Source of the DNA: Butyrivibrio sp. | Lineage (GTDB): Bacteria > Bacillota > Clostridia > Lachnospirales > Lachnospiraceae | Direction of reading: 5' to 3' | DNA: 64,000 nt | Assembly: GCA_045124255.1 (NCBI GenBank) | Contig: JBGVLM010000007.1 | Location: 9,382-73,381 of the forward strand | Shown: piece after piece, positions 15,148 through 59,586 of the stretch | How the letters are laid out: every line of letters starts with the position of its first letter | Numbering within the stretch: the stretch's first letter is position 1 | The notes under the pieces: model-generated | Told to the model about the DNA's origin: nothing | What the model saw: only the letters and a program-made list of their open reading frames with translations | Databases searched by the model: none | Program-made: the position numbers and the translations under genes

Positions 15148-15807
15148 CTATTTCTTAGCATTATTATCGTCAATTTTCTCCCTAATCTGCTGCATTCTGT
15201 AATCCAGCTGATTAATCAGCTCGGCACAGTAAAACAGTTCATTTGAAATACTTTCCGCATTAGGAATTTGCTTCTTATACTTAAGCTTATGTTCAAGACT
15301 TGCCCAGAAATCCATTGCAATAGTCCTGAACTGAACCTCAACACGCATATATTTCTTCTCATTCGTAAGAAAAATCGGCACCTCAACTATAAGATGAAGA
15401 CTTCTGTAACCATTGGACTTAGGATTGGCAATGTAATCCTTCCTGTTGATAATTCTGATATCATCCTGTGCCGAAAGATATTCAGCCAGTTTATATATAT
15501 CATCAGGGAAGGAACAGATAACTCTTATTCCTGCCACATCATTGAGATTCTCCTCGATATTTTTAAGAGTTACCGGGAGATTGTCCCTCTTAAGCTTGTC
15601 AATAATAGACATTGGTTTCTTAATTCTGGTCTTAATTGTTTCAAAAGGATTGCGGCTGTCCCTGACTGCAAGCTCGGCATTAAGCACGTCCAGCTTGGTC
15701 TTAACCTCTAACATTGCACATTCATAGTGCATCATCAGCTCATTAAATTCCCTTATTACGCCCTTAAATTCATCAATATTTTCCAATCTTTCACTAATAT
15801 TTCCCAT
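15148..15807 (-). CDS. Small alarmone synthetase (RelQ/RelP-type GTP pyrophosphokinase)
   Basis: 219 aa, single RelA/SpoT synthetase domain with DVAGIRVICSF, GYRSLHLIVEVP and VEVQFRTIAMDFWASLEHKLKYK. Confidence 0.85.
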   Translation of the reverse strand: MGNISERLENIDEFKGVIREFNELMMHYECAMLEVKTKLDVLNAELAVRDSRNPFETIKTRIKKPMSIIDKLKRDNLPVTLKNIEENLNDVAGIRVICSFPDDIYKLAEYLSAQDDIRIINRKDYIANPKSNGYRSLHLIVEVPIFLTNEKKYMRVEVQFRTIAMDFWASLEHKLKYKKQIPNAESISNELFYCAELINQLDYRMQQIREKIDDNNAKK

Positions 15808-15908: not shown

Positions 15909-17204
15909 TTATTTTACGAAACTGTTCAATACTTCTTCCTTCATAAACGGTTTCATAACAAACTTCGCGGCACCTATCTTTAATGCACTGATAACCTTCT
16001 GCTGCTGTCCTGCTGCCGTAATCATAATTGCGTAAGCATCCGGATCATACTTAACTATCTCACGAAGTGCCTCTACACCATCCATCTGCGGCATAGTAAT
16101 ATCGAGAGTTATAATATCCGGTTTGTACTGTTTATATGCCGTAACAGCCTCAAGACCGTTCTCAGCCTCTGCAAGTACACAGTAGCCTGCGTCTTCAAGA
16201 ATTGCTCTGAGCATTTTACGAATCATTCTTGAGTCATCAACTATTACAACAGTTCCCTTACTGTTACCTGCATTTACAACAGTCTCACTCTTCTGGGATT
16301 TATAAACATATCTGAGTTTACCAATACTGATTGTTGAATCAACTGCAATATAGAGAGAAACCTTCTTACCCTCAATATATACATTAACAATATATGCACT
16401 GCCCTCAGCAGTCTGGTTGATATATGTAAATGGAGGCTCCATATCAATATCAACGCCTTTCTCACTAAGCTCTGAAGCAAGAAGACCGTTATTAATATTG
16501 GCAAATTCTCCAACTGCATCAGCTACGTCATCTGAAATCTCAGTCAGTGTCTCGCCTGCATATTTGGAAGCAAGAAGACAAATGCCCTCTGTGTCCTCAT
16601 CAGCAGCAAATCCAAGGTAAATAGTGTGGTCACCCACTACCTTCTGTCCTGCGATAAACTTATAATCAAATTCTGATACATGGCGTATTCTGTCAATATA
16701 AAAATCTGTTGAAACAAATCTTGTAATATTTCTAAGAATAAGACCAACCATATCTGTTACATAAGGCTTTGCCGAAAAAGCAAATACAGGAACAATTGTA
16801 TCAATATCATCCTGCTTAAGTGCAGTAAGCTCTGCCTCTGTAAATCCTCTTTCCTTACGGAATGACTCAACATGTTCTTCAATAACCTGAACCGTCAAAT
16901 CAGTCTTCTCCGTAACAAGCTGAATAAATTTCATATAGGCATTGCCCTGCTTATCAAGGAGCTGTTTAACCTGCTCTCCTGTAAGGTAACCTTTATCTAC
17001 CGCAATATCACCAAATCTCATATCCATCTGAGTCTGTAAGTGATTAATCTCTTCTGCCTGCTTCTCTGTAAGCATTCTCTCTGCAACAGCAATTGTACCG
17101 AGTCTTACTCTTGTGCTTGCCTGCTCTTCAAGAATCTCCTTCTTAACGTTCTCAGCTATAATTCCTTTCTCAACGAGATAATTCCCCATCAATTGACTAA
17201 ACAT
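15909..17204 (-). CDS. Response regulator with N-terminal MshEN-like repeats, central CheX/CheC-like domain and C-terminal CheY-like receiver
   Basis: Receiver domain: VVIVDDSRMIRK...DIITLDITMPQMDG...KPF. CheC/CheX-type motif: D-AVG-E-FA-N ... PP. Three 24-residue RxGxxhVxxGhhxxxxhxxxLxxQ-like repeats occupy residues 5-86. Confidence 0.75.
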   Translation of the reverse strand: MFSQLMGNYLVEKGIIAENVKKEILEEQASTRVRLGTIAVAERMLTEKQAEEINHLQTQMDMRFGDIAVDKGYLTGEQVKQLLDKQGNAYMKFIQLVTEKTDLTVQVIEEHVESFRKERGFTEAELTALKQDDIDTIVPVFAFSAKPYVTDMVGLILRNITRFVSTDFYIDRIRHVSEFDYKFIAGQKVVGDHTIYLGFAADEDTEGICLLASKYAGETLTEISDDVADAVGEFANINNGLLASELSEKGVDIDMEPPFTYINQTAEGSAYIVNVYIEGKKVSLYIAVDSTISIGKLRYVYKSQKSETVVNAGNSKGTVVIVDDSRMIRKMLRAILEDAGYCVLAEAENGLEAVTAYKQYKPDIITLDITMPQMDGVEALREIVKYDPDAYAIMITAAGQQQKVISALKIGAAKFVMKPFMKEEVLNSFVK

Positions 17205-17322: not shown

Positions 17323-20300
17323 TTAATTTTTGCCATTTAACAGTCTTTTGCGATTAATTATCACAACAGAGGCCAATGCCAATGCCAATACCACCGTCAT
17401 TGAAATGCATAAAACAACTGCTGCACTATTTCCTGCGTCGGGATTAGTATCAGGCTTTGTGTCCGGGTCATCAGGATTGATATCCGGATTTGTTCCCGGC
17501 TCTATACCCGGATTATCAGGTTCTGTATCAGGATTATCAGGTTCTGTATCAGGATTAACTGTTGCTGCAGTAAGTGCTACTGTCTTGGAGGCCGTTCTTC
17601 CTGCATAAGGTGTTCCTGCTTTGCCCGTTGAAATTATTGTAACCTCTGTAAGTGTGCAGGAAGCACCTACCGTAAGTGTACCATCTGCACTGATGGAAAC
17701 ATTGGCAGGATTATCTTTTAATGTATATGTACATGAAGCTTCAACATTTTTTTCGGCGTAATCCACCGTATCGTAATTTGCCGAACTTCCTATCTGAACG
17801 CTTGAAGAACCTGTTATGCTGATATCGTACGGATTAGTAATCACAATCTTCTGAGGTTTGGCTGCTCCGATTACATTAACCGCACGGACATAAATATCCG
17901 TTGACTCGCCATTGGTCTCAACTGTATAAGAATTATTAGTAGTGCTGTAGGTAATTATATAGTTATCTCCTATATCAGTATATGAGCCGGCTTCATCTCC
18001 TGTTGTGATATAATCAGCCTCAGTCGGCAGTACTCCTTTTGGCATTACTGCAATCTGATAACCAAGAATCTCCGCTCCGTTATCAGCAGGCACAGTCCAT
18101 TTTAATTCTACCTCTGAATCTCCGGATACAATTCTTTCCTGTTCTTCTATCAGGTCAGGTACCTTTGCAAATATAACCGTTCCGCGTCTGGCATTCAAAA
18201 TCCTGTTATATGCACTATAATATAATTCATCAAATATTTTATTGCTGTATAAGTTGTCATATCCCCAATTTTTGTATTTGCCGTCAACAAGCATTTCTTT
18301 ATTCGAAATCTCCATACGCACAGGCACTATGTAACCATTTTCGCTTCCTGCATACCATAACTGTGATATAAGATTTTCTTTGCCAAGCTCTATCTCTCCA
18401 AACAAGCTTAACGGTATTTCCAATTCTTCTCCATACACATCAGTCTTTGTATTTAATTGTGACGCATCATTTACCTGCACGGAATTTACAAATAATTTAT
18501 GAGTAACAAAATTATCCGTAACATAATTGAGGAATTCTTCATATGCAGAGTCACCAAATTCTTCTTTCAAAGTATTTTTAAACGCCGCAGCAAGAACCGT
18601 ATAATCCTCATTATAGTCCACTGTGGCTTCCTGCTTAATAATCCAGACTTTCATAGAATCAGATGAAAGACCGATATTATCCAATATCTCTTCCAGTTCA
18701 TCAATGCTACATCCGTACATGTTGCTGTCATCAGCAGTCGAAAACTTATCGACAGCGGTATTATTACATGTCAGTTCAGCTTTAACGGGAACAATACCGG
18801 TTATGGTATTAAGTACAATTTCTCCATAGACACTATCATAATATGTATAAGACGAACTTAATTCTGATGTGACACCAGCCTCATCATCCCAATATAAATT
18901 TTCCCAAATCAACTCCATTATATAATTAATTGTGCCTAAACCAAATGTACCTAACGGTTTACCATCCACCATAAGTGTATATACAGCCTCTTCATAATCC
19001 AGATTAAGTCCGACACTGATATAATTAAGATATGTCATGTATGCTTCTATTTCTTCACAAGTCGTATTTCCGACAGCAATTTCCGGAAGAACTACACTAT
19101 CCCATATAAAGCAGTCATCCGAATCACATTTTTCGTATGCCTCCAGCAGATTCCCATTATCCGCCATATAGATTTTTATCGGCAAAAATTCTGAATATAA
19201 GTTATCGTAATCATTATAAGCCTTTATAATAATACTCTCATTTCCCAAATCAATCAGATGACCATTGAAACTGTTTATTTCGTCACGTGCCCAATAATAC
19301 TCATAATAAGAATCCACATCTGCGAAATCATCAAACTCATAGATCTTACCTAACATAATATTGGTAAACTCCTCAACCGCCTCATTCTTTGATTCAACAG
19401 GTGACGGCAATACACAGCCAAGCAGCTGATATCCGGTTTCTGCATTATTCTTAGAATAGCCGTCATTATACAAAATCTCATCATTGACATATACTGAATT
19501 CAAATAATAAAGTCCCGAATTGTTGTCATTAGGAATATTAAGTGTTGTACCCAGTTCTGCCAGACTGCCGGCATCCACATAAATATTACCTTTGTACATC
19601 TTAATATAATCGAATTCTCCCGCTGCATGATATTCTGTCAGACTTTCTATACGATTATATCCAAGTTTTTTACCATATACATATGAAGTGCCATATTTTT
19701 CAATCTCATAATCATACAGGCTGACTCCTGTTTGGATATATTCCGTTGCAGCATTGCTATTGTCTGTAAGTGTGTATTTAACCGTATAATCCTTATTCAA
19801 ATCTGTTGATGTAAGATAATCAATAATAGCATTACCATCAGTAATTCCCATTGCATTAAGATATGAAATAATTTCATCTGAGAAACCATAATCAGGGTCA
19901 TCTTTACAATATGTTGCAGTATACTCCCATGTCGGATATGCCTCTCCATTCGCCTGTTCATATCCGTCAACAATAGTAGTCTCTCCGATTAAGTCTCCTT
20001 TCTCGTCCCTGTACACAACACCAAGTCTGGCTCTGTATACACCATCCTCAACCATCATTATTCCGTAGCTGCCGGCACCATAATACAAAGGGTTACTTGT
20101 ATATTGTATTACTTCATACTGCTTATCTCCGACATTCAGATAAACGACAGCCTCAAGCACCGGTGAATCATCCATATTAATGCTGCCCGTATTATCAATA
20201 ATTATATTCGGGAGGGCATGATATACAAAGCTTTCCTTCAATGCACCCTCTCCATTCGGGTCCCCATTCTTGTCGGCATATCCTATACCTAACATTCCGG

Positions 20301-20433
20301 CTTTATCCGCAATCGAAAAAACCTCATCTGCCCTGACCGGCATGGTAACAGTACTTGTAATAAAAAGCACTAATACCAGCATTAAGCCAAGACTCCTCTT
20401 TATATCCTTCCATATTTTTTTTGCACTAACCAT
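17323..20433 (-). CDS. Large cell-surface protein (signal peptide, FN3 domain, Big_2-like domain, Pro/Asp/Thr-rich stalk, C-terminal TM anchor)
   Basis: 1036 aa. Signal peptide LVLVLFITSTVTMPVRA. FN3-like SGDSEVELKWTVPADNGAEILGYQIAV. Ig-like region (SSSVQIGSSANY..VSISADGTLTVG). Stalk NPDTEPDNPDTEPDNPGIEPG. TM helix plus basic tail (NRKRLL). No LPXTG motif. Confidence 0.75.
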   Translation of the reverse strand: MVSAKKIWKDIKRSLGLMLVLVLFITSTVTMPVRADEVFSIADKAGMLGIGYADKNGDPNGEGALKESFVYHALPNIIIDNTGSINMDDSPVLEAVVYLNVGDKQYEVIQYTSNPLYYGAGSYGIMMVEDGVYRARLGVVYRDEKGDLIGETTIVDGYEQANGEAYPTWEYTATYCKDDPDYGFSDEIISYLNAMGITDGNAIIDYLTSTDLNKDYTVKYTLTDNSNAATEYIQTGVSLYDYEIEKYGTSYVYGKKLGYNRIESLTEYHAAGEFDYIKMYKGNIYVDAGSLAELGTTLNIPNDNNSGLYYLNSVYVNDEILYNDGYSKNNAETGYQLLGCVLPSPVESKNEAVEEFTNIMLGKIYEFDDFADVDSYYEYYWARDEINSFNGHLIDLGNESIIIKAYNDYDNLYSEFLPIKIYMADNGNLLEAYEKCDSDDCFIWDSVVLPEIAVGNTTCEEIEAYMTYLNYISVGLNLDYEEAVYTLMVDGKPLGTFGLGTINYIMELIWENLYWDDEAGVTSELSSSYTYYDSVYGEIVLNTITGIVPVKAELTCNNTAVDKFSTADDSNMYGCSIDELEEILDNIGLSSDSMKVWIIKQEATVDYNEDYTVLAAAFKNTLKEEFGDSAYEEFLNYVTDNFVTHKLFVNSVQVNDASQLNTKTDVYGEELEIPLSLFGEIELGKENLISQLWYAGSENGYIVPVRMEISNKEMLVDGKYKNWGYDNLYSNKIFDELYYSAYNRILNARRGTVIFAKVPDLIEEQERIVSGDSEVELKWTVPADNGAEILGYQIAVMPKGVLPTEADYITTGDEAGSYTDIGDNYIITYSTTNNSYTVETNGESTDIYVRAVNVIGAAKPQKIVITNPYDISITGSSSVQIGSSANYDTVDYAEKNVEASCTYTLKDNPANVSISADGTLTVGASCTLTEVTIISTGKAGTPYAGRTASKTVALTAATVNPDTEPDNPDTEPDNPGIEPGTNPDINPDDPDTKPDTNPDAGNSAAVVLCISMTVVLALALASVVIINRKRLLNGKN
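17440..17560 (-). repeat. In-frame 21-nt tandem repeats encoding (N)PDTEPD heptads of the surface-protein stalk
   Basis: GGATTATCAGGTTCTGTATCA occurs twice in perfect tandem (17510-17551), flanked by degenerate copies. Confidence 0.8.
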
Positions 20434-20438: not shown

Positions 20439-21965
20439 CTACTCTCCTTTTGAATAAATATAATATCCATTATTCATTTGTAAGTTATAACCGGCTTTAT
20501 TCAGTTCATTGGAAAGATTTACCGCTTCTGTGTCAGACAACCCATCTGATTCATAAGTCTCGTACCAATAACTGATTTCATCACGAATTAAAATCTTATC
20601 GTACTTCTCATAGTTATCCGTATCATTAAAATATATGTTCATAACAGATATTCCACGCCCATATTTATCATAAACCATATTGTCCGGACTAATAAGATAT
20701 TTAATTCCGATATAACACTCCGACTGAAATACGCCGGTGGTGTCAAGCATAACCGTATCGCCCTCCTCTACGTTATCCAATACATTCATTATTCTGTCAT
20801 CTCCGTAAATATAAGGCTCTTTTGTCAGATACTCCTTCATAAAGAAGCCAAACATTACGAGATAACCAAGTCCCGCCAGAAAAACAAGACTTTTAAAGTA
20901 ATTTATAATAAAATCAATTCCTACGGCAGTAAATACCAGCAGGAAAAAATATATTACCGTAAAATTATATGTGGTAGCATCAATAATAAAAAGTAAAGGA
21001 ATAAAAGCCGCGAGAAAAAATCCCCCGAAATATCTGTCTGCTTCATTTGCCTTTAATTCCTTAATAATCCTTACAAGTCCTACGGGTATAAAAAGCCAGG
21101 ACAAATAATATATTGTGCCGAACATTCTGCTCCCTGCAAAATCCGACTGGGAATCAGTGAAAAACATATACCTCAAATTCAGTATATTTTCAAAAGAAAA
21201 ACCAAAATCCTTCTTACGTGCCGCAGAAACCGGTGCAATAGTAAAATAATCCGTATATACAGCCGGAGCAATATCAATAAGAGTAAGCAGATACCAGAAA
21301 ACAGGAAAGCTTACAACAAATGCAATACCCGTCTCAATAAACAGGTATTTTCTCTTCCATCCGAAAATAAACTGCACCGCAATAAAAAGCGGAATCATGA
21401 ACACCGCAATTATATAAGAATAACTCAGTAATCCCAGACATACCCCTAATCCGATATAACTGCCCACACTGCCCTTCTTATGGCAGCGGTTGGCGAGATA
21501 CATACACAGCACAAACACCAAAATTACGATATCACAGTCATAGGACATACCCGTCATTTTATAAAAATACGGTGAAATAATATACAGAATATAAAATATC
21601 CATTCTGTTCTTTTGTTAAAAATATCCCTAATCAGGCTTCCGCCGGCAATCAGGGTTACAAGTTCCGAAATAAGCTTTACTGCTCTGCACAGAGTTACGC
21701 TAAAGCCGAATACCTTGGTAAGGCAAACGCCAATGTATACATACAGTGCACTCTGTCCGCTGGTACCGTTTGCAAAATATACCGGAAACGGGTTGCCGTA
21801 CCGGTCGGTTCCAAACTCTGACAGGCAGAAAATATTGTAATCAATTGCTGCCTCATCGAAATTAATCCCATGCAGTTCAAAAAACACACAGGGAATTCTT
21901 GAAACAATGAGGCAGGCGATTGCAATTATGGTTATATAATATTTTTTAATAAATTGCTTTAACAA
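20439..21965 (-). CDS. Polytopic GT-C-type glycosyltransferase (PMT/ArnT-like, family 39-like)
   Basis: 508 aa with about 11 predicted TM helices, an acidic motif in the first extracytoplasmic loop (GINFDEAAIDYN), and a soluble C-terminal domain. Its stop is 5 nt from the start of the surface-protein gene. Confidence 0.6.
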   Translation of the reverse strand: MLKQFIKKYYITIIAIACLIVSRIPCVFFELHGINFDEAAIDYNIFCLSEFGTDRYGNPFPVYFANGTSGQSALYVYIGVCLTKVFGFSVTLCRAVKLISELVTLIAGGSLIRDIFNKRTEWIFYILYIISPYFYKMTGMSYDCDIVILVFVLCMYLANRCHKKGSVGSYIGLGVCLGLLSYSYIIAVFMIPLFIAVQFIFGWKRKYLFIETGIAFVVSFPVFWYLLTLIDIAPAVYTDYFTIAPVSAARKKDFGFSFENILNLRYMFFTDSQSDFAGSRMFGTIYYLSWLFIPVGLVRIIKELKANEADRYFGGFFLAAFIPLLFIIDATTYNFTVIYFFLLVFTAVGIDFIINYFKSLVFLAGLGYLVMFGFFMKEYLTKEPYIYGDDRIMNVLDNVEEGDTVMLDTTGVFQSECYIGIKYLISPDNMVYDKYGRGISVMNIYFNDTDNYEKYDKILIRDEISYWYETYESDGLSDTEAVNLSNELNKAGYNLQMNNGYYIYSKGE

Positions 21966-23662: not shown

Positions 23663-23695
23663 AAAAATCCCCGGCGTTCATCACCGGGGATTTTT
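23663..23695. terminator. Bidirectional rho-independent terminator between convergent genes
   Basis: AAAAATCCCCGG-cgttcatca-CCGGGGATTTTT, with an A-run on one side and a T-run on the other. Confidence 0.85.
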
Positions 23696-23738: not shown

Positions 23739-25385
23739 TTATAAAGATTTTGAAATCTCTTCTCTCATCTTATCCTCTCCGATTATATGGATAATGCTCC
23801 ACAAATCAGGTGTGTTAGCCTTGCCGGTCACTGCAATTCTTACTATCTCGGCAACATCCGAAATGCTTCCCTTGTAATTCTCAGGATTAGCCTTGTATGC
23901 CTTCATATCAGAAGCAAAGCCAAGCTTGTCAGCAATTACTTTCAGATTATCAAACCATGCTGAATTATCATCTGCATAATTAAATGCCTCAAGATACTCA
24001 TTAAGAACTGCCTTGACTGTATCCGAATCACATTTAAACGGCTCCATCTCTTTATTATCCTCAAAGAAAAATCCGATTAATTCCATAATCTGTTTAGCGT
24101 AGATGAAATCTTTTCTTCTTCGCTTCATGCCGATTCCCATATACAGTCTTAAAATTGCAAGCATTTTCTCACGGTCAGCAAACCAGATTTCTGCTTTCTC
24201 AGGTTCATTCTCCTCAGCCCAGTTCTTAAGGAAGTCATACATCTCCTCCTCTGACAGCTTCGCAAGTTCATTTTTACAGATATTGTGAAGCTTGTCCTTG
24301 TCAAAAAGAGCACCCGACTGGCTCATTTTCTCAACAGAAAATGGGAATTCGCTGCAATCCTTATCCGGGAATTTCTCATACCACTCCTCAAAGTTTGAAT
24401 TAAGAAGTGTGAGAAGGTAAATCTTCATGCCCTGTGGATGATATCCGTCCTTGCGATAGTAATCAAGTGACAATTCAGGGTCCTTTCTCTTTGAAAGCTT
24501 TCTTTTACCGCCCGTCTCCTCATCAAACTTCATTAAATGTGCCGTATGTCCGTAAGCAGGCATTTTAAAGCCAAGCACATGGAATAATTCATAATGAATA
24601 GGTGCGGAAGCAAGCCACTCACCGCCTCTGATGACCATTGTGGTTCTCATAAGATGGTCATCTATTGCATGTGCAAAATGGTATGTCGGAACACCGTCTT
24701 TTTTCAAAAGAACGATATCGTGAATATTCTCAGGAAGCTTAATATCTCCCATAATGCTGTCAGTAAAGGTAATTTCCCTGTCAGGGCTGCCCTGTGAACG
24801 GAGTCTTAATACATATTCCTTACCCGCCTTAAGGTTCTCCTCAATCTGTTCAATTGTAAGATTGCGGCAGAGTGCATATTTGCCGTAGTAGCCTGTAAGC
24901 TCCTTTGCCTCCTCCTGCTGTCTGCGGATTTCCTCAAGTGCGTCCTCCTCACAGAAGCATGGGTAAGCAAGTCCCTGCTCAACCAGTCTCTTTGCAAAGG
25001 CATGGTAGATTTCCACACGCTGTCTCTGGAAATATGGTCCGTAAGCATTCTGTGGCGCATCATCATCAAAGCCTGCACCCTCATCAAACTCAATATTAAA
25101 ATAACGAAGTACATTAATAATTGTCTCAACTGCACCATCAACCTTACGTTTCTCGTCAGTATCCTCAATTCTTAAATAAAATACGCCGCCGTTACGATGT
25201 GCAATTCTCTCATCAGCAAGTGCACTGTATAAGTTTCCAAGATGTATAAAACCTGTCGGACTCGGTGCCATACGTGTTACCTGTGCTTTGGCAGGGAGTT
25301 TTCTGTATGGGAATTTCTCCTCATAATACTCCGGTGTCTTGTCCACATCAGGGAATAATAAATCTGCTAATTTCTGATTATCCAT
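23739..25385 (-). CDS. gltX: Glutamate--tRNA ligase (class I, GluRS family, long form)
   Basis: HIGH-type motif APSPTGFIHLGN, RIEDTDEKR, and KMSKS-type KLSKRK. ATG 25385 with a GGAGGAG RBS is preferred to the TTG at 25397. Confidence 0.8.
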   Translation of the reverse strand: MDNQKLADLLFPDVDKTPEYYEEKFPYRKLPAKAQVTRMAPSPTGFIHLGNLYSALADERIAHRNGGVFYLRIEDTDEKRKVDGAVETIINVLRYFNIEFDEGAGFDDDAPQNAYGPYFQRQRVEIYHAFAKRLVEQGLAYPCFCEEDALEEIRRQQEEAKELTGYYGKYALCRNLTIEQIEENLKAGKEYVLRLRSQGSPDREITFTDSIMGDIKLPENIHDIVLLKKDGVPTYHFAHAIDDHLMRTTMVIRGGEWLASAPIHYELFHVLGFKMPAYGHTAHLMKFDEETGGKRKLSKRKDPELSLDYYRKDGYHPQGMKIYLLTLLNSNFEEWYEKFPDKDCSEFPFSVEKMSQSGALFDKDKLHNICKNELAKLSEEEMYDFLKNWAEENEPEKAEIWFADREKMLAILRLYMGIGMKRRRKDFIYAKQIMELIGFFFEDNKEMEPFKCDSDTVKAVLNEYLEAFNYADDNSAWFDNLKVIADKLGFASDMKAYKANPENYKGSISDVAEIVRIAVTGKANTPDLWSIIHIIGEDKMREEISKSL

Positions 25386-25409: not shown

Positions 25410-28055
25410 TTAATTATCTGCAATATCTGAATTGTTACATTCAAAAGAAAGATTGTCAATATTTTTTTGAAGTATTTCTGACATATATGCCTTATCCTTC
25501 CTGTTATTGGCGGCATAAAAACGTTCCATATTATTTCTGACAACCTCTGCTGCTTCTTTTTCAAATTCCCTTGATGACATTCGAAGACAGCCCTGTCCCA
25601 TAACAATAATCTGCTCCTGATTATCCGAGGTCACAACAGTTATTTTGTATTTTCTGCCATAATCATGTGCAAAACGTTCAATATATCTGTCGGCAGTCTC
25701 TGCTTCCGCAGTATATACGACATGAATATTGTGATAATCAAGATACTCAACTGCATGTCCTTTTACCCTGTAGGCGTCAAAAACAACAATCAGTTCAGTC
25801 TTTTTAAATGCCTGATAATTGCAGAGTATATCCAGAAGCCTGTCCCTCGCACTGTCAATATTAACTGCGGCAAGTTCTGAAAGCTCCTTCCATGCATATA
25901 TAACATTATAGCCGTCAACAAGAAAATAATCCGGTCCTTCCCGCTTCTCCCCTTTGAATGAGCTGTAGTCCTGTTTCTCGGAAGCATACTGCCATTTAAC
26001 ATTTCTCTTCTTATGGTTTGCACCGATTGTACTCTCTATAATAGCGTCAATCTCCTCCGTACCAAGGGCATAATCACTGTCCGTAAAACGAAGTCCGGGA
26101 TTATTCATCTCCTCTGCATGCTCCTCCAAGGGTTTAAAATAACCCTCAACATGCATATAATTTCCAACCTCATTCCACGGAACAACAAAACCTGCTCCAT
26201 GTGTACAGAATACAGAAGATGAAGGATTGGCAGTATCCCCTTCTGCATTATAGCCTGCTGCTCCAATAACATCCTCTGCATTATGACATTTCTCAAAGCC
26301 CCTGAGAACACATCTGAGGCTTCCCCTGCCGCCCGTATAAGCAGAAACTTCAGCGGAATATTCTCCGATGGTTGAAACCGGTGCCACGCCTGTAATTACA
26401 GTCATATCTTTGATGGTTTCAGGCGGCTCAAATCGCCCGTAAAGCTTTTTAATGTCCGTAAGAGCCCTTCCTATACATTCCGTCGGTATTTCAAGTTCAA
26501 AAGCATACACAGGCTCCAAAAGCACGCAGGAGGCACTCATAAGTCCCTGCCTTACCGCCCTGTAGGTTGCCTGCCTGAAATCACCGCCCTCCGTATGCTT
26601 TGTATGTGCCTTTCCTGCAACAAGGGTAATTCTCATATCCGTTATTTCCGAACCTGTCAGCACTCCCCTGTGCCGCTTCTCCTCCAGATGCGTAAGAATA
26701 AGCCGCTGCCAGTTTCTGTCTAACAAATCCTCCCTGCAGTCCGCTGCAAATTCCAGTCCGCTTCCTTCCTCCAACGGCTCCATAAGCAGGTGTACCTCCG
26801 CATAATGTTTAAGCGGCTCGTAATGGCCTACTCCTTCAACGGCATTTTCAATGGTTTCTTTATATATTATTTTGCCCGTATCAAATTCTACATCCAGCAC
26901 CAGACGCTCCTTAATCAGACTTTTTAGTATTTCAATCTGTATGGCTCCCATTATTCTGACATTAATCTCTGAATGCTCCTCATCCCAGTCAAGATGAAGC
27001 TCCGGAATCTCCTCCGCAAGGTTTCTGAACTTAGGAAGCACCTTTACGGCATCCACAGCTTCCGGCAGAATTATTCTGTAAGTAAGCACCGGCTCCAAAA
27101 CAGGCAGAATAACTCCCTTATCTGTTCCGACGCCCATACCTGAACAGGTGTTATCAGGTCCCGTAACTGCACAGACGGTTCCGCTTACAGCCTCATTAAC
27201 AACGCTAAAAGCCGAGCCGTTATATATTCTTATTTGATTTACTTTTTCATTATTAATGCTGTCGCGTACTTTAAGCGTTCCCTCCGTCACCTTAAGAAAG
27301 GTCTGACGCACTCCGTTCTCATCTCTCTGAATCTTGTAAACTCTTCCTGCAAAAGCATTATTCTGCTTACAGCCATGCAAATCCTCACTAAATCTGTTAA
27401 GTCCGTTAAGCAGCAAATCAATCCCCTGACATTTCAATGCCGAGCCAAAATAACACGGAATAATCCTTCTGTTTAAAATTCCCTGTCTGATTGAAGCATC
27501 CGATACACTTCCGTTCTCTAAAAACTCCTCCATTGCCGAATCATCAGTCATTGCAATATTATCATGAAACTGTGTATCCTCGCTGACATCAAAGGCTATA
27601 CAGCAGTCTCCTAACTTCTTCTGTATCTGAAAGAATATATTCTCCCTGTCCGCAGTCTGCCTGTCCATTTTATTCACAAAAATAAACACCGGCACATTAT
27701 ACTGCTTTAAAAGCTTCCATAGTGTCAGCGTATGGCTCTGAATCCCATCCGGACCGCTTATAACAAGAACTGCATAGTCAAGAACGCCTAATGTCCTCTC
27801 CATTTCTGCCGAAAAGTCCGTATGACCCGGTGTATCTATCAAGGTTATCTCCGTTTCAGGCATGGAAATAACCGCCTGCTTGGAGAAAATCGTGATTCCC
27901 CTCTGACGTTCCATTTCATAGGTATCCAGAAATGAATCACGATTGTCCACTCTTCCAAGCCTGCGGATCATCCTGCCTGTATATAAAATTCCTTCCGAAA
28001 GTGTGGTTTTGCCTGCATCAACATGTGCAAGAATACCGATTACAATTTTCTTCAT
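25410..28055 (-). CDS. EF-G/Tet(M)-like translational GTPase fused to a C-terminal YacP/Rae1-type NYN ribonuclease domain
   Basis: G1 AHVDAGKT, G2 RGITI, G3 DTPGH, G4 NKMD. The N-terminus is close to ribosomal-protection-protein N-termini (MKxxxIGxLAHVDAGKTTL). Residues about 708-850 (FLVDGYNVIYAW, LIVVFDAYRVKG, EAETADRYIERFA, VVTSDNQEQIIVMGQGCLRMSSREF) align motif by motif with B. subtilis YacP as I recall it. Confidence 0.8.
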   Translation of the reverse strand: MKKIVIGILAHVDAGKTTLSEGILYTGRMIRRLGRVDNRDSFLDTYEMERQRGITIFSKQAVISMPETEITLIDTPGHTDFSAEMERTLGVLDYAVLVISGPDGIQSHTLTLWKLLKQYNVPVFIFVNKMDRQTADRENIFFQIQKKLGDCCIAFDVSEDTQFHDNIAMTDDSAMEEFLENGSVSDASIRQGILNRRIIPCYFGSALKCQGIDLLLNGLNRFSEDLHGCKQNNAFAGRVYKIQRDENGVRQTFLKVTEGTLKVRDSINNEKVNQIRIYNGSAFSVVNEAVSGTVCAVTGPDNTCSGMGVGTDKGVILPVLEPVLTYRIILPEAVDAVKVLPKFRNLAEEIPELHLDWDEEHSEINVRIMGAIQIEILKSLIKERLVLDVEFDTGKIIYKETIENAVEGVGHYEPLKHYAEVHLLMEPLEEGSGLEFAADCREDLLDRNWQRLILTHLEEKRHRGVLTGSEITDMRITLVAGKAHTKHTEGGDFRQATYRAVRQGLMSASCVLLEPVYAFELEIPTECIGRALTDIKKLYGRFEPPETIKDMTVITGVAPVSTIGEYSAEVSAYTGGRGSLRCVLRGFEKCHNAEDVIGAAGYNAEGDTANPSSSVFCTHGAGFVVPWNEVGNYMHVEGYFKPLEEHAEEMNNPGLRFTDSDYALGTEEIDAIIESTIGANHKKRNVKWQYASEKQDYSSFKGEKREGPDYFLVDGYNVIYAWKELSELAAVNIDSARDRLLDILCNYQAFKKTELIVVFDAYRVKGHAVEYLDYHNIHVVYTAEAETADRYIERFAHDYGRKYKITVVTSDNQEQIIVMGQGCLRMSSREFEKEAAEVVRNNMERFYAANNRKDKAYMSEILQKNIDNLSFECNNSDIADN

Positions 28056-28153
28056 GCTGTTCTATTTCTTCTCCATTTTCTTCATTGTAACGCATTTTAC
28101 GTTACAAATCAATCATCGGCCTTCCACGATATAATCTTCTTCCTCTGACCAAG

Positions 28154-28233: not shown

Positions 28234-28698
28234 TTATCTTCCCGCCAAGGACTTTCCAACAACGTACACTCCAGCCAACATTTCTACAATTGATAATCCT
28301 AATAGTACGCCGGAAACGAAGTCTTTAATATTTGAGCCTCCAAATGCATAAGAAAGAGCCTGTAATGCAATACCCATTACAATTAGCATAATTCCATATA
28401 ACATATTTTTTTGTTTTTCTAACTCTTGTGTTCTTCTTAGCAAATCTAAAATTTGCTCATCATCATAGGTGTGAACACTTTTTTCTTCTGACATCTCTCC
28501 ATCCATCAGTTCTGCCACTGTAATTTCAAGTTCCTCACACAAACTTTTTACAATAGCATAGTCTGGCATACACTTACCGGTTTCCCATTTAGAAATAGTC
28601 TTATTGGAAACTCCAAGCTTCTCTGCCAATTGTTCCTGCGTTAGATTTTTCTGTTTTCTCTTTAACGCTATAAATTTTCCTGTAACTGATTGGTTCAT
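28234..28698 (-). CDS. XRE-family HTH transcriptional regulator with C-terminal transmembrane segments
   Basis: HTH LTQEQLAEKLGVSNKTISKWETG, plus two C-terminal hydrophobic helices. ATG 28698 with a GGAGG RBS is preferred to 28716. Confidence 0.8.
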   Translation of the reverse strand: MNQSVTGKFIALKRKQKNLTQEQLAEKLGVSNKTISKWETGKCMPDYAIVKSLCEELEITVAELMDGEMSEEKSVHTYDDEQILDLLRRTQELEKQKNMLYGIMLIVMGIALQALSYAFGGSNIKDFVSGVLLGLSIVEMLAGVYVVGKSLAGR

Positions 28699-28821
28699 AT
28701 GTATTCCTCCATTCATTTGATGACATAAAGGTACCTCTTTCGATGTTTAAATAAAATCCCTTGTTGATAGAATATAGGTGGAATCCATATAAAATAACGG
28801 AATATTACATAGGAAATATTC

Positions 28822-39277: not shown

Positions 39278-39982
39278 TTAAAAATGCAGTCTCCGCCTTA
39301 CCGCATTTCTTATTCGTTTATGGGAAAGCATTGTAATAAAAGTAATATCCAGTATCACACACACTACAACAACAATCATTGACCACATAAGATGTATCTT
39401 ATTACTGATATATCTGTCTATAAGAATTTCAAGTCCGAGGCATATCGTGCCTGTCATTGTAAATATCTCCAATGCCATTGTAAGAAATGTCACGGGAAGC
39501 TTCCTGATACATACAACGAAAATTTCAAGGATTGCCGTTATAAATAATGTTATATACAACGCAAGCTCCCAAAACCATCTGTCATCAGCAGTCAGAAACG
39601 TAATCAGAAAAAGATAAATCCCTACTGCCAATCCGTCAAGCAGGATTGCAATATAAGGAGGCAGCTTCCGGCAAATAAGCACAGGTATAAAAAGCACCCA
39701 CAGCATAAAGCATGCTCCGATTACCGTAATTGCCCATGGAAATCCCTTTAAAACGAAAAGATTCAGCAGACCGCAGGTTATAGCCGTTGCAACAAGAACA
39801 ACCGAAATAAGAACTCCAATATCCCTGCTGCTGACTTCCTCAACCCTTCCCTTTTCCTGAGGGAAAGAGTTATCCATATTCTTTAATTCAGTTACTCTCG
39901 GATTTATAACCGGCGTGTTGCACAGAGGGCACTGCTTAACGGAATTATCAAGCTCAACTCCGCAGTTAACACAATATGACAT
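39278..39982 (-). CDS. Zinc-ribbon membrane protein (DUF6320-like)
   Basis: N-terminal CVNCGVEL..CPLCNT zinc ribbon, then about 6 TM helices. Confidence 0.6.
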   Translation of the reverse strand: MSYCVNCGVELDNSVKQCPLCNTPVINPRVTELKNMDNSFPQEKGRVEEVSSRDIGVLISVVLVATAITCGLLNLFVLKGFPWAITVIGACFMLWVLFIPVLICRKLPPYIAILLDGLAVGIYLFLITFLTADDRWFWELALYITLFITAILEIFVVCIRKLPVTFLTMALEIFTMTGTICLGLEILIDRYISNKIHLMWSMIVVVVCVILDITFITMLSHKRIRNAVRRRLHF

Positions 39983-39983
39983 T

Positions 39984-41276
39984 TTATCTTCCCTCCCTGT
40001 TACTCTCTATTTTGACGTGAATACCGTCCTGAACCAGCTTCGTAAAAAAATAACGCTCCACATCCGCTTCAACAATACTGCTGGCAAAATTAATTGTCAA
40101 TATATCCTCAAAGCTGATTATAGCACAATTCGTTCTCCTTGAAAAAGGCTGTCCCATATAAATATCAAACCGCTCAATATACGGTTTCATGTTCTCAGGC
40201 ACCTTTAATGCACCCATATTGGTAAGTCCTGCCGAGGAATTTCTGTCCTGAACCCTGGTATAAAAGGTTTTAACTACAAAATCCTTAATAAATAACGGCA
40301 CAACCCTTATAATCGGATTTCTCTGTGCAGAAGCATTGGTTGTTATGTCTCCGCGCAGGAATTTTTCATTAATATAGTATCTCATATGATTGTGAACATG
40401 TGCCACAATTTCATCAAAGCTGTATTCTCCAAGCCTTGGGTCAATTCCCGGATAAATCATTGAAATAAAATTACGCAGCGTCTTTGACGGAAAGAATCTT
40501 CTTAAATTAACCGGCATCGCTATTCTGACGGGCTTTAAACGGTATGCACCGTCAGCCTCCTGTTTACGAAGCAATGCATATAAGAGCACGGCATTAAGAT
40601 ATTCCGTTATTGTCGCCTTGTATTTAGCCGCCACAGTCTGAACCTGTTTAACCGACATAATTCCGTCAATTATATTAAGTGTATAGAACGGCTCTTTCGT
40701 GCCCCGAACCCTGTAGGTCTTATCCATCGGTCTCGGAGGACATACCTTTGAATTAGCGTATTTCATATATGCGTCCTCAAGTTCTCCGGGGTCGGGCTTC
40801 TCATTAATATCCATTACAAAATAACTGTTATCTATTTCCCTGCCAAGCAGCCTTAAATACTGTGCCGTCAGAGTCTGCAGCACACACATTCCGCCCGTTC
40901 CGTCACCAAGGCTGTGATGTGCCTCAAAGGAAATCCTGTTTTCATAATAATAGACCCTGACTAAATATCTGTTATTGGATTTAAAAGACATTGGCATACA
41001 CGGATTCTTAATATCAAGCTGCACAAACGGTCCCGGTCTGTCATTGGGCTCTAAATACCTCCAGAAAAGTCCCTTTCGTATTGAGGACTTATAAGTCGGA
41101 AATCTCGGCAGTGTCATATCAAGAGCCTGCTGAAGAATATCCGGCTTAACAGCCTCCTTTAACAACACCGAAATTCTGTATACTGATGAAAAATCCCTGC
41201 GCTGCAGGGTCGGATACACCGTTGCTGATAAATCCAGCTTATACCAGATTGATTGGTTTTTCTTATCTTTTTTCAT
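39984..41276 (-). CDS. Condensation-domain-like acyltransferase (alcohol acetyltransferase / PapA5-WS/DGAT-like)
   Basis: 430 aa with the catalytic HHSLGDGTG (HHxxxDG) motif. Its stop is 1 nt from the start of the zinc-ribbon membrane protein gene. Confidence 0.7.
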   Translation of the reverse strand: MKKDKKNQSIWYKLDLSATVYPTLQRRDFSSVYRISVLLKEAVKPDILQQALDMTLPRFPTYKSSIRKGLFWRYLEPNDRPGPFVQLDIKNPCMPMSFKSNNRYLVRVYYYENRISFEAHHSLGDGTGGMCVLQTLTAQYLRLLGREIDNSYFVMDINEKPDPGELEDAYMKYANSKVCPPRPMDKTYRVRGTKEPFYTLNIIDGIMSVKQVQTVAAKYKATITEYLNAVLLYALLRKQEADGAYRLKPVRIAMPVNLRRFFPSKTLRNFISMIYPGIDPRLGEYSFDEIVAHVHNHMRYYINEKFLRGDITTNASAQRNPIIRVVPLFIKDFVVKTFYTRVQDRNSSAGLTNMGALKVPENMKPYIERFDIYMGQPFSRRTNCAIISFEDILTINFASSIVEADVERYFFTKLVQDGIHVKIESNREGR

Positions 41277-41345
41277 ATTCGACCTGATTTCTAATTTTTT
41301 AAGAATTAAATAATACTATATTTTATCGCAACAAATCCCATATCG

Positions 41346-41849
41346 TCATCTCATTCGCCCTAACCTTTGAAATTCTCGATATTCGTGTAATGCATTCATT
41401 AAGACTTGCATATCTGAAAAGTATTCTGTTACAAATTCATAATTCTTTACATTATTAAACTTTAATGTTGACTTACAATAAATACTGGGCTTTAATTTAG
41501 GATTCTTCCGTGCTTCTCTCTCGTAATCTTTATACTTTTTCTCATTACAGATAATCAGCTTTTCGATTTCCGGAGCAGTTATTACGTTTTTTACATCTAC
41601 TTTTTTCTCATACGCCTTACTCAACTTAAACCTCTCACCACGAGAATCCAATATACGATAAATTGTAATTTTCTCTGTAAAACCTTTTCTTAAATACCTT
41701 TCCTCGAATTCCTTACCGCCTCTGCATCTTAATAGTTCTTCCTCTATCAAATCTTTGCGTTCAAAAATCAATTTGTGATTATCAAGCAACAAATCCAATA
41801 TTGCTCTTTCTGCGCCGCCTTCGCAAATACATGCTATATATTTTCCCAT
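41346..41849 (-). CDS. Small protein (167 aa), putative Toprim/RloB/DUF4276-like effector partner of the upstream ATPase
   Basis: N-terminal strand plus acidic motif YIACICEGGAERAILDLLL, central ITIYRILDSRGE, and later ITAPEIEKLIICNE. AAGGAGG RBS, 15 nt after the ATPase stop. A/T-rich. The family assignment is tentative. Confidence 0.5.
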   Translation of the reverse strand: MGKYIACICEGGAERAILDLLLDNHKLIFERKDLIEEELLRCRGGKEFEERYLRKGFTEKITIYRILDSRGERFKLSKAYEKKVDVKNVITAPEIEKLIICNEKKYKDYEREARKNPKLKPSIYCKSTLKFNNVKNYEFVTEYFSDMQVLMNALHEYREFQRLGRMR

Positions 41850-41864
41850 ACTGCAGCCTCCTTA

Positions 41865-58263: not shown

Positions 58264-58277
58264 CCTGACTTTCTATT

Positions 58278-59368: not shown

Positions 59369-59397
59369 AAAGTAATACTCTTATTAGAAAAAATATA

Positions 59398-59569
59398 CTT
59401 TAAGTAGCTCCCCATCGAAAAAAGATGACAGTCATATGACTATTAATCATATGCCCAGCCCGAACAATCACAGTAATTGAACGACTTCGGCGCTACACCC
59501 TTTCAACCATGCTCATCTATGACTGCCATATCACACGGTATACTATTGAACAGCGCAACCTCTACTCTA
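59398..59569 (-). promoter_or_regulatory. Lysine riboswitch (L-box) aptamer
   Basis: The minus strand contains the hallmark L-box blocks AGAGGTTGCG, GTTGAAAGGG, GCGCCGAAG, CTGTCA and GGGGAGCTAC, in the canonical order, upstream of dapA-dapB. Confidence 0.8.
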
Positions 59570-59586
59570 AAATTTTAACTTTATTA

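Follow-up and report, generated by a model that had tools for sequence, protein, structure and literature searches.

A clostridial translational GTPase fused to a Rae1/YacP-type endoribonuclease, and its proposed role at arrested ribosomes

Rae1 (YacP) of Bacillus subtilis is a translation-dependent mRNA endonuclease that acts at stalled or collided ribosomes and feeds trans-translation (PMC12407103, PMC13622287). It is a stand-alone protein of about 170 amino acids encoded in the operon gltX-cysE-cysS-mrnC-rlmB-yacP, and the presence of mrnC and rlmB in this operon led to the first prediction for YacP-type NYN proteins, namely a role in rRNA/tRNA maturation (PMC5499597). The NYN_YacP active site consists of four conserved aspartates (Matelska 2017, PMC5499597). 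Association of Rae1 with the ribosome is transient, and for this reason no ribosome-bound structure of the protein exists (PMC13622287). An analogy has been drawn between Rae1 and two collision-sensing endonucleases, SmrB of Escherichia coli and Cue2 of yeast (PMC13622287). The authors who proposed A-site cleavage by Rae1 have withdrawn that premise; in B. subtilis the stalled ribosome's mRNA is cut on the exit side, 12 nt 5' of the A-site codon.

Proteins in which a TetM-like GTPase is joined to an NYN_YacP domain are not new in Clostridia, having been described previously, without experiments, in two surveys (Atkinson 2015, BMC Genomics 16:78, Additional file 8, PMC4342817; Matelska 2017, NAR 45:6995, PMC5499597). 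Our literature search found no experimental data on any member of this family. The protein described here, encoded in a 64,000-nt stretch of a Butyrivibrio sp. genome (contig JBGVLM010000007.1, hereafter the window), is a further orthologue. Like the published clostridial fusions, it combines an EF-G/Tet-like body and a C-terminal NYN_YacP domain in one polypeptide, and nothing essential distinguishes it from them. Motifs held in common with the fusions of Ruminococcus albus 7, Eubacterium rectale, E. eligens, Butyrivibrio proteoclasticus B316, Clostridium cellulolyticum, C. thermocellum, C. phytofermentans and Desulfitobacterium hafniense include GVGHFEPLRHYAEVHL, AGRAHxKHTEGGDFR, CHN...NPxGSVFCxHGAG, the EEID helix, LLVDGYNII, FDAYRV, ETAD and TSD. 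The gene and the parts of its product are as follows.

25410..28055, minus strand: fusion gene, EF-G-like translational GTPase plus Rae1/YacP NYN nuclease (single ORF, Pfam)
27396..28055, minus strand: G domain, residues 1-220 (PF00009, E 4e-48)
27150..27353, minus strand: domain II, residues 235-302 (PF22042, EF-G_D2; AlphaFold β-barrel, pLDDT 85-91)
26883..27095, minus strand: domain III, residues 321-391 (PF14492; weak, E 7.9e-5, below the gathering score)
26532..26876, minus strand: domain IV, residues 394-508, the A-site/decoding-centre probe (PF03764, E 1.4e-18)
26574..26618, minus strand: domain IV tip loop AGKAHTKHTEGGDFR, residues 480-494
26280..26525, minus strand: domain V, residues 511-592 (PF00679, E 3.4e-16)
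26136..26279, minus strand: conserved family-specific module after domain V, residues about 590-640 (CHNAE...NPSSSVFCTHGAGFVVPWNEV..YMH)
25932..26135, minus strand: variable, Lys-rich, disordered tether, residues 641-708 (pLDDT <50 at 642-706; mean conservation 0.38)
26019..26066, minus strand: short conserved tether helix LGTEEIDAIIESTIGA, residues 664-679 (helix predicted at 667-677)
25458..25931, minus strand: Rae1/YacP-type NYN endoribonuclease domain, residues 709-866 (PF05991, E 1.4e-49)
25914-25916, 25776-25778, 25689-25691 and 25623-25625, minus strand: codons of the catalytic aspartates D714, D760, D789 and D811

The fusion of an EF-G-like GTPase to a Rae1-type nuclease is confirmed as real. 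The 881-amino-acid protein is read from an ATG start in one uninterrupted frame, in which five EF-G-type domains (residues 1-592) are followed by a conserved 50-residue module, a disordered tether of ~65 residues and the NYN domain. The Pfam spans (GTP_EFTU 4-220, EF-G_D2 235-302, EFG_III 321-391, EFG_IV 394-508, EFG_C 511-592 and NYN_YacP 712-866) bear out the domain architecture that an initial annotation, made from the sequence alone, had described. The identical protein has been recorded twice, at NCBI and in an independent SRA assembly, and the same architecture is found in 120/120 of the best homologue clusters, in 80/80 genome loci and in at least 588 species-representative genomes across the Clostridia (Lachnospiraceae, Oscillospiraceae/Ruminococcus, Clostridiaceae, Desulfitobacterium/Desulfosporosinus, Fusibacter and others); the family had been put at 'ten species' by Atkinson 2015 (PMC4342817). 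A query with the linker and NYN domain returned 434 clusters at E<=1e-30. Close relatives that appeared to be split or stand-alone were, on inspection, all fragments, scaffold gaps, nonsense codons or linker frameshifts, always beside the GTPase, and among them no close relative of the fused NYN domain was found apart from it. That two separate genes had been joined by a sequencing or assembly error, the refutation which the initial annotation foresaw for itself, is effectively a refuted explanation already. Nothing speaks in its favour, since other assemblies err in the opposite direction, with fusions broken by Ns or frameshifts, and a chimera or frameshift is incompatible with an identical protein from two independent sources, a fused architecture in all of the best clusters and hundreds of orthologues with the same continuous frame.

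The GTPase body carries the G1 motif AHVDAGKT, switch I RGITI, G3 DTPGH with the catalytic His78, G4 NKMD and G5 GSAL, the first four being those noticed originally. These G1-G5 motifs, with the catalytic His after DxxG and a domain II β-barrel to follow, place the protein in the translational GTPase superfamily, and they are invariant across the family. Conservation was assessed in a divergent set of 72 sequences, each representing a 50%-identity cluster and 37-53% identical to the query, with counts given per 73 sequences; K16, T55, D74, G77, N128, K129 and D131 are kept in 73/73 and H78 in 72/73. The protein resembles EF-G (fusA) in overall fold (Foldseek E 1e-51), in its G motifs and in a conserved histidine at the tip of domain IV, H484, which aligns with His573 of Thermus thermophilus EF-G and is present in 65/73. 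The EF-G alignment runs in two stretches, query 6-153 to EF-G 15-162 and query 170-581 to EF-G 223-670, and the weakly scoring domain III is confirmed as a fold by the Foldseek alignment of ~680 columns. Unlike EF-G, the protein has a truncated, Tet-like G' insertion that lacks ~44 residues, its domain IV loop I is 4 residues shorter and without the GGRGQ tip, and it bears the additional C-terminal module and nuclease. Scores against the EF-G models are correspondingly low (TIGR00484, 278.9 vs a cut-off of 659.4; NF009381, 310.4 vs 583). Domain IV is the most conserved of the domains, with a mean column conservation of 0.86 vs 0.72-0.75 in the others and with H411, Y418, H487 and D492 kept in 73/73. 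This conservation, together with retention of the EF-G tip histidine, suggests a central functional role for sensing of the A site or decoding centre.

The module that follows domain V has no Pfam family, even at E 10, yet its mean conservation is 0.73 and several of its residues are nearly constant in the divergent set (C590 66/73, C617 69/73, H619 64/73, W627 67/73, H635 70/73); its richness in Cys and His would be compatible with a metal or structural site. In the full-length AlphaFold model its pLDDT is 76-89, vs 36-63 when the EF-G body is left out, and this loss suggests that the module probably packs on the EF-G-like body. Within the tether, E668 and I672 of the short helix are invariant in close homologues and kept in 69/73 of the divergent set. 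The invariant helix motif and the conserved module together point to selection on the connection itself. The inter-domain arrangement in the full-length model is of low confidence (pTM 0.56), and no docking of the NYN domain on the body is predicted.

The C-terminal domain scores 168.8 bits for PF05991 over residues 712-866 vs a gathering cut-off of 24.6, so that the HMM comparison proposed at the outset came down on the side of NYN_YacP. In a PDB sequence search the NYN region matched B. subtilis YacP/Rae1 (5MQ9) at E 3.5e-26, and in a Foldseek search of the PDB the Rae1 structures 5MQ9/5MQ8 were the sole strong matches (E 2e-12, TM 0.77, 37% identity) to a domain modelled with pLDDT >90. The earlier placement of the domain at residues 708-850 (nt 25506-25934) is arithmetically correct, and the YacP blocks named in the initial annotation do align with 5MQ9: DILLVDGYNMIGAW/DYFLVDGYNVIYAW, VIVVFDAHLVKG/LIVVFDAYRVKG, ETADERIE/ETADRYIE and ATSDYTEQ/VTSDNQEQ. 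In this alignment D714, D760, D789 and D811 correspond to Rae1 D7, D53, D81 and D104. All four are invariant, both in 71 close homologues and in 73/73 of the divergent set, in agreement with the conservation that the initial annotation had made a test of its proposal. The catalytic residues of both enzymes in the fusion are intact and under purifying selection. The protein shares with Rae1 the fold and the four active-site aspartates, and translation-coupled RNA cleavage may be expected of it as well; it differs from Rae1 in that its NYN domain is the C-terminal end of an 881-residue GTPase and its gene context is different and variable.

Fusion neighbourhoods vary across 80 loci, and the context is housekeeping, chromosomal and non-mobile. 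None of the genes that accompany yacP in the cysS-mrnC-rlmB-yacP(-sigH) neighbourhood occurs in the window. An HTH_3 gene lies upstream of the fusion gene in the window, but the linkage to HTH genes mentioned by Matelska 2017 (PMC5499597) is not general, an adjacent HTH gene being present in 1/66 loci with upstream sequence. Database matches that suggested carriage on plasmids or phages were misfiled chromosome fragments. PADLOC-DB yielded 0 families for the fusion, and only generic HTH matches for the upstream HTH protein; the phage-response role once entertained for this gene accordingly finds no support. The gene is best explained as encoding a clostridial translation factor that is chromosomal and passed on vertically.

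We somewhat favour, at little better than even confidence, a reading in which the fusion is a ribosome-docked, GTP-gated Rae1 and cuts the mRNA of arrested ribosomes. Ribosome binding would be expected from homology to EF-G and Tet proteins, and the mRNA substrate and the link to stalling would follow by analogy with B. subtilis Rae1. The five-domain GTPase body would dock at the ribosomal factor-binding site, where its family-specific, highly conserved domain IV would probe the decoding centre, and the GTPase would recognise an arrested ribosome, whether with a vacant A site, blocked in translocation or collided. Docking would raise the local concentration of the tethered nuclease and lead to an mRNA cut near the arrested ribosome; tmRNA-type rescue and mRNA decay would act on the truncated message, with release of the factor by GTP hydrolysis. 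Since association of Rae1 with the ribosome is transient, evolution could plausibly have arrived at a covalently attached docking module as a solution. SmrB and Cue2, in which a nuclease is coupled to a module recognising arrested ribosomes, are functional analogies only: their nuclease fold is SMR rather than NYN, the recruitment modules are unrelated, and the recruiter of the fusion would be a covalently linked, active GTPase. Ski7, an adaptor of the trGTPase family through which the exosome reaches stalled ribosomes, is likewise only a functional analogy to the recruitment proposed here.

Several observations weigh against this ribosome-docked Rae1. GTPase-guided cleavage had been envisaged in the initial annotation as an A-site GTPase delivering an A-site RNase; ribosome-targeted RNA cleavage stands as the most economical reading, but that geometry is wrong, because the A-site premise has been withdrawn. 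The Rae1 cut lies at the exit side, whereas EF-G-type factors bind at the opposite, entry/A-site side, so the reading needs a tether that reaches round the subunit, docking on a trailing ribosome, or a cut site other than that of Rae1. Nor do the compared loci offer a conserved neighbour, such as smpB/ssrA or rqc genes, that would corroborate a role in rescue, and the substrate could equally be rRNA or tRNA. A more specific, rather unlikely version treats the EF-G-like body as a 'failed-translocation sensor' that licenses a Rae1-type cut at the disome interface. The body would bind the rotated pre-translocation ribosome, as EF-G does; on a trailing ribosome blocked by a stalled leader, translocation would remain incomplete and the GTPase would dwell, with GTP hydrolysis serving as a kinetic-proofreading timer. 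The dwell time would license mRNA cleavage by the tethered Rae1 domain at the adjacent interface of the disome. There the mRNA-entry side of the trailing ribosome would meet the tail of the stalled ribosome, the very place of the Rae1 cut in B. subtilis. If true, this version would make the fusion a collision-rescue nuclease in many Clostridia and a GTPase-gated bacterial no-go-decay factor.

Were the substrate rRNA, the GTPase would dock the nuclease on ribosomes or subunits, and the fusion might process precursor rRNA as an assembly checkpoint, or inactivate or dismantle ribosomes under stress or during sporulation. The checkpoint would resemble the yeast case, in which the PIN nuclease Nob1 cleaves 20S pre-rRNA under stimulation by eIF5B/Fun12. 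The original maturation prediction for YacP-type NYN proteins (PMC5499597) is in keeping with an rRNA target, the tethered nuclease could reach 16S/23S rRNA close to the factor site, and the conservation of domain IV is equally compatible with probing a decoding centre free of tRNA. We nevertheless consider an rRNA substrate quite improbable, given that B. subtilis Rae1, the only characterised NYN_YacP member, cuts mRNAs in a way that depends on translation, that no rRNA target is reported in the Rae1 literature cited, that the fused NYN domain has the active site of Rae1, to which it is 37-44% identical, and that the 80 loci show no linkage to rRNA-processing or ribosome-assembly genes. It is very unlikely that the modules are largely independent, with the EF-G-like body acting as a translation factor in its own right, the NYN domain as a co-expressed general RNase and the fusion serving no targeting function. 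The length, disorder and poor conservation of the tether, the lack of predicted docking and the linker lesions in several assemblies, of a kind that would separate the modules, would fit such independence, but the fusion has been kept across the 588 or more species and hundreds of 50%-identity clusters, no close relative of the fused NYN domain was found away from the GTPase, and the linker helix motif and post-domain-V module are conserved.

A genuine tetracycline ribosomal protection protein, whose nuclease adds a second resistance or clean-up activity, is suggested by the names that NCBI PGAP and IMG give to orthologues ('TetM/TetW/TetO/TetS family tetracycline resistance ribosomal protection protein'), the automated label that the initial annotation had anticipated, and by placement of the fusion in the Tet subfamily in the HMM classification of Atkinson 2015 (PMC4342817). 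TetM is the top PDB sequence match (E 1e-66), and tet_protect (NF012153) is the best NCBIfam model, but its score of 407.6 bits is barely half of the cut-off of 775, and other Tet models are similarly distant: NF033148 (TetM/W/O/S) 274.8 vs 1100, Tet(M) 220 vs 1420, Tet(Q) 266 vs 1425 and Otr(A) 290 vs 900. Residues L505-V510 of TetM, with Pro509 at the tip, contact or displace tetracycline (PMC4750697, PMC7456112). In the domain IV alignment, TetM loop III LYYSPVSTPADFR is matched by KAHTKHTEGGDFR in the query, so that these residues are replaced by AHxKHTEGG, invariant in the family; the alignment is ungapped and the loops are of equal length, which leaves room for function, as loop III substitutions are tolerated when conformation is kept (PMC4750697). 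Over domains IV-V, EF-G scores slightly above TetM (58.5 vs 54.6 bits), and EF-G structures come first in Foldseek. The fusion does share with Tet(M)/Tet(O) a five-domain EF-G-like architecture with GTPase motifs and the short G' region, but its C-terminal extension differs and runs on into the tether and nuclease, and it is not on mobile elements: the 80 loci and the window present ordinary, variable chromosomal contexts with no conjugative-transposon genes, and the hundreds of host species, environmental anaerobes included, are consistent with vertical inheritance. A resistance function thus appears highly improbable, sequence and genomic context indicate that this is no bona fide Tet protein, and the description of its N-terminus as 'very close' to ribosomal protection proteins was overstated, its similarity to EF-G being about that to TetM.

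Hundreds of gut and environmental Clostridia carry this gene under the label of a Tet determinant, and the resistance-gene counts of gut metagenomes are inflated as a result. If Lachnospiraceae and Oscillospiraceae have no Rae1 homologue other than the fusion, mRNA surveillance in these dominant human gut bacteria would proceed through a GTPase-gated nuclease. A GTPase that can be trapped, with GDPCP or by mutation of His78, combined with a nuclease-dead NYN domain would offer a direct route to a ribosome-bound structure and to the ribosome state that triggers cleavage. The fusion is common in gut and soil Clostridia, and its hosts include environmental anaerobes.

The immediate surroundings of the gene in this genome include three further features.

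28084..28112, minus strand: promoter-like site TTGATT-17-TACAAT, 29 nt upstream of the ATG (candidate from a consensus scan and reading of the sequence only)
23739..25385, minus strand: gltX, glutamyl-tRNA synthetase (Pfam tRNA-synt_1c, Anticodon_2)
23663..23695: strong terminator beyond gltX

No terminator was found between the fusion gene and gltX, which begins 24 nt 3' of the fusion stop codon with its own GGAGG RBS, and the two genes are probably co-transcribed in this genome. Among the loci compared, this adjacency is limited to two close relatives (L027 and L091).

The open reading frame at window 25410..28055(-) starts with ATG and runs through 881 codons in a single unbroken frame, at the coordinates given in the initial annotation. 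The architecture claimed there, a translational GTPase body joined to a NYN nuclease domain, is borne out by Pfam matches along the protein:

Residues 4-220: GTP_EFTU (E 4e-48)
Residues 235-302: EF-G domain 2
Residues 321-391: EFG_III (weak match)
Residues 394-508: EFG_IV (E 1.4e-18)
Residues 511-592: EFG_C (E 3.4e-16)
Residues 712-866: NYN_YacP (E 1.4e-49; 168.8 bits, gathering score 24.6)

Against PDB sequences, residues 1-588 matched TetM (3J9Y, E 1e-66), with many EF-G entries scoring nearly equally, and residues 709-863 matched the ribosome-associated endoribonuclease YacP/Rae1 of Bacillus subtilis (5MQ9), with which the four YacP blocks given in the initial annotation align just as stated. 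The Rae1 active-site residues D7, D53, D81, and D104 correspond in the alignment to D714, D760, D789, and D811 of the fusion. No NCBIfam model matches the NYN part. Foldseek matched the full-length AlphaFold model to EF-G structures over ~680 columns (E 1e-51). The NYN domain was modeled at pLDDT >90, and its structure has strong PDB matches only to the two crystal structures of Rae1 (E 2e-12, TM 0.77, 37% identity); the arrangement of the domains relative to one another is of low confidence (pTM 0.56).

The fusion is fixed and widespread and is not an artefact, a possibility that can be set at practically nil. The 881-residue protein is recorded identically twice, at NCBI and in an independent SRA assembly. 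The frameshift or assembly error contemplated in the initial annotation is not the case, as PF05991 and EF-G domains occur together in 120/120 of the best clusters (90%-identity clusters, 50-100% identical to the query), and the fused architecture is present in all 80 loci among the matches listed from the at least 588 genomes that encode a relative in a scan of one genome per species. These 80 loci belong to Lachnospiraceae, Ruminococcus/Oscillospiraceae/Acutalibacteraceae, and Clostridiaceae, as well as Desulfitobacterium/Desulfosporosinus, Fusibacter, Epulonipiscium, Cellulosilyticaceae, and Thermoclostridium. Complete genomes with the fusion include those of Acetivibrio thermocellus ATCC 27405, Ruminiclostridium cellulolyticum H10, Agathobacter rectalis ATCC 33656, Butyrivibrio proteoclasticus B316, Desulfitobacterium hafniense, and Sellimonas caecigallum (NZ_CP173660). 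Residues 593-881 alone, searched exhaustively against 1.84 billion cluster representatives, gave 3215 matches, 434 of them at E<=1e-30; among the best 150 of the 3215, 72 are full-length (>=800 aa) and the remainder are mostly truncated metagenomic fragments.

All short, seemingly separate NYN proteins encoded on long contigs were checked as candidate split or stand-alone forms. The homologous protein P0264 and similar apparent stand-alone relatives are fragments on tiny contigs. Among loci from other genomes, L082 is an error-ridden assembly with many broken genes, L083/L084 and L089 carry frameshifts at A-runs within the linker, L086/L087 carry scaffold N-runs within the linker, and L088 has a single in-frame TAA. 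The candidates for a natural two-gene form, sought as Rosetta-stone evidence, are thus all fragments, gaps, frameshifts, or a nonsense codon. In L082-L084 and L086-L089 alike, the NYN part follows immediately downstream of the GTPase, and among the short NYN proteins on long contigs none closely related to the fused NYN domain was found detached from the GTPase. A second NYN copy is absent from the window and the 80 loci, as is the canonical rlmB-yacP-sigH locus from the 64-kb window. The linker lesions lie at these positions:

L083/L084, about 5930-6000
L089, about 4920-5000
L088, about 2600

An A8-run frameshift or in-frame TAA exactly in the Lys/A-rich linker recurs in several independent assemblies, leading gene callers to list a 'GTPase' plus a separate 'NYN protein'; such lesions may reflect sequencing errors, genuine decay, or a slippage that yields GTPase-only and full-length products.

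Conservation was examined in an alignment of 71 homologues and in a second alignment of 72 cluster representatives of far greater divergence (37-53% identity). In both, motifs G1-G5 hardly vary, with K16, T55, D74, N128, and D131 kept in 73/73 sequences and the catalytic His78 in 72/73. Loss of the catalytic Asp residues in homologues, which would have counted against the initial annotation, is not observed, all four being kept in 73/73. Conservation in the fusion peaks in domain IV (mean 0.86 vs. 0.72-0.75 for the other domains), which in EF-G and Tet proteins is the element that reaches the decoding center. The tip-loop sequence of domain IV is AG(K/R)AHxKHTEGGDFR, and in the alignment H484 falls at the tip histidine of EF-G (T. 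thermophilus H573). Domain V is followed by a further module:

Window 26136-26288(-): Cys/His-rich module of ~50 residues (residues ~590-640)

Residues C590, C617, H619, W627, and H635 of this module, which also contains H591, are kept in 64-70 of the 73 sequences, and no Pfam family matches residues 588-709 at E<=10. The module differs from the C-terminal extension of TetM, and it may form a metal site. Because AlphaFold folds it confidently only in the full-length model (pLDDT 76-89 vs. 36-63 in isolation), packing of the module onto the EF-G body is probable. Disorder is predicted for residues 642-706, and conservation there is low (0.38) apart from one short helix, LGTEEIDAIIESTIGA, in which E668 and I672 are invariant in close homologues and kept in 69/73 divergent sequences.

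Orthologues are named 'TetM/TetW/TetO/TetS family tetracycline resistance ribosomal protection protein' or 'ribosomal protection tetracycline resistance protein' by PGAP and IMG, as the initial annotation had forecast. A true Tet protein with an accessory nuclease would account for tet_protect being the best NCBIfam model and for the PDB match to TetM 3J9Y, but the tet_protect score (407.6 bits) falls well under the cut-off of 775, and the Tet(M/W/O/S), Tet(M), Tet(Q), and Otr(A) models are much further under theirs; EF-G models likewise remain under their cut-offs. Domains IV-V alone score slightly higher against EF-G than against TetM, and EF-G ranks first in Foldseek. In ribosomal protection, tetracycline is displaced by domain IV loop III, whose tip carries Pro509 (PMC4750697, PMC7456112). 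The TetM loop III sequence LYYSPVS is absent from the fusion, which has a different invariant sequence there. Loop I of EF-G is four residues longer than that of the fusion. The ordinary chromosomal setting, devoid of integrase or conjugation genes in the window context, also speaks against a resistance determinant, and the Tet reading is very improbable. By the available tests, the fusion is not a Tet protein and tetracycline activity is unlikely, a grading that goes no further because the length of loop III is unchanged relative to TetM and this loop tolerates substitutions (PMC4750697).

The window neighbors include genes for GreA, a small alarmone synthetase, glycerol kinase, GltX, FeoB, AddAB, DapAB, and BipA. 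Across the 80 related loci the neighbors are variable and unrelated, and neither tblastn with the window neighbors nor de novo neighbor clustering revealed a conserved operon partner, the best cluster being a generic ABC ATPase at only 12/80 loci. The features flanking the fusion are as follows:

28234-28716(-): HTH_3 (XRE-type) gene, 160 aa, immediately upstream of the fusion
28112..28084(-): promoter-like site, 29 nt upstream of the ATG
23739-25385(-): gltX, beginning 24 nt past the fusion TAA, with a GGAGG ribosome-binding site
23663-23695: strong terminator after gltX

Given the 24-nt gap, the lack of a terminator between the two genes, and the terminator after gltX, the fusion and gltX are probably co-transcribed in this genome. 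The adjacency is confined to the close relatives L027 and L091, i.e., 1/80 genome loci, the only one with gltX downstream, plus MT835514.1. It recalls the gltX-cysE-cysS-mrnC-rlmB-yacP operon of B. subtilis (PMC5499597), although this may be coincidence. No structured RNA leader or T-box was found near the fusion. The linkage to HTH genes (Matelska et al., 2017) was not upheld, since an adjacent HTH gene occurs in 1/66 loci with upstream sequence, despite the one in the window; the C-terminal half of the latter protein (IMLIVMGIALQAL..., VLLGLSIVEMLAGVYVV) has a membrane-spanning appearance. PADLOC gives no match for the fusion, and the phage response suggested in the initial annotation gains nothing from it.

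Records that would place the fusion on mobile elements were re-read and rejected. The 'plasmid' matches appear to be misfiled chromosome fragments, and 'UNVERIFIED Bacteriophage sp.' MT835514.1 (L091, from human faeces) is a bacterial chromosomal contig syntenic with the window, sharing the order AddB-AddA-Csp...FeoB...fusion-gltX at identities of 46% for AddB, 53% for the fusion, and 83% for GltX (pairwise BLASTP). It is filed as phage in the INPHARED collection, with MT835563.1 named alongside. The Agathobacter rectalis 'plasmid unnamed1' (NZ_CP143948.1, L085; 251 kb) encodes the housekeeping proteins methionyl aminopeptidase and GatB/YqeY, as well as a fusion orthologue that is annotated as TetM-family resistance and adjoins a BrnT/CopG toxin-antitoxin pair; rather than a plasmid, this record is probably a chromid or a piece of the chromosome.

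The fusion gene is thus real, well conserved, and mis-annotated, and belongs to a family that a 2015 study was the first to note; its novelty was overstated initially. The sequences in Additional file 8 of that study share all signature motifs with the window protein (Atkinson, 2015, BMC Genomics 16:78; PMC4342817), and TetM-NYN_YacP fusions were later noted in some Clostridia, their role being called unclear (Matelska et al., 2017; PMC5499597). Full-text literature yielded no experimental study of the fusion and no paper tying it to the later-discovered function of Rae1. The picture of Rae1 action has itself changed: Rae1 makes tmRNA substrates on collided ribosomes, and no ribosome-bound structure exists, binding being transient (2026 preprint, PMC13622287).

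In non-mobile contexts throughout a bacterial class, selection maintains as one unit a translational GTPase with an intact catalytic center, a strongly constrained decoding-center probe, a flexible tether, and an intact Rae1-type nuclease; that the modules function independently of one another is highly unlikely. By analogy with EF-G and Rae1, the body would dock at the ribosomal factor site in a GTP-dependent manner, domain IV would fill the A site, and the nuclease would cleave RNA on or near the bound ribosome. With a disordered tether of ~65 residues, the nuclease could extend to the mRNA entry side of the docked ribosome; when ribosomes collide, this side faces the stalled leader, and it is at that interface that Rae1 cuts. 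The substrate is, on balance, somewhat favored to be mRNA on an arrested ribosome, with products feeding trans-translation and decay, while cleavage of rRNA, for processing or ribosome inactivation, is quite doubtful. The reach of the tether suggests a more specific 'failed-translocation sensor' model, which seems rather unlikely. Of the mechanism first proposed, ribosome-targeted RNA cleavage rather than resistance stands; the pairing of an A-site factor with an A-site RNase does not, because domain IV would itself fill the A site, and the Rae1 cut falls on the opposite side of the stalled ribosome. The fusion offers a ready-made handle on how Rae1-type nucleases engage stalled ribosomes, and the family a correction to resistome annotation.

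Elsewhere, a run of poorly characterized genes at 39278-43019(-) could be a defense-like or transport cassette:

41865-43019(-): AAA_21 (AbiEii/OLD-like) ATPase
41346-41849(-): 167-aa ORF, no Pfam match
39984-41276(-): 430-aa ORF, no Pfam match
39278-39982(-): DUF6320 protein

A 1036-aa ORF at 17323-20433(-), with no Pfam match even at E 1e-3, adjoins a PMT_2-type glycosyltransferase (20439-21965) and a CheC/CheX-receiver protein (15909-17204). The sole Rfam match in the window, a lysine riboswitch (RF00168, 114 bits, 59397-59572(-)), lies upstream of dapA/dapB (57499-59162), an ordinary arrangement. Translation-stress factors are also present, namely a 219-aa small alarmone synthetase with a RelA_SpoT domain (15148-15807(-)) and TypA/BipA (60423-62276(+)), ordinary genes from which it follows that the genome has a separate set of EF-G-family paralogues.
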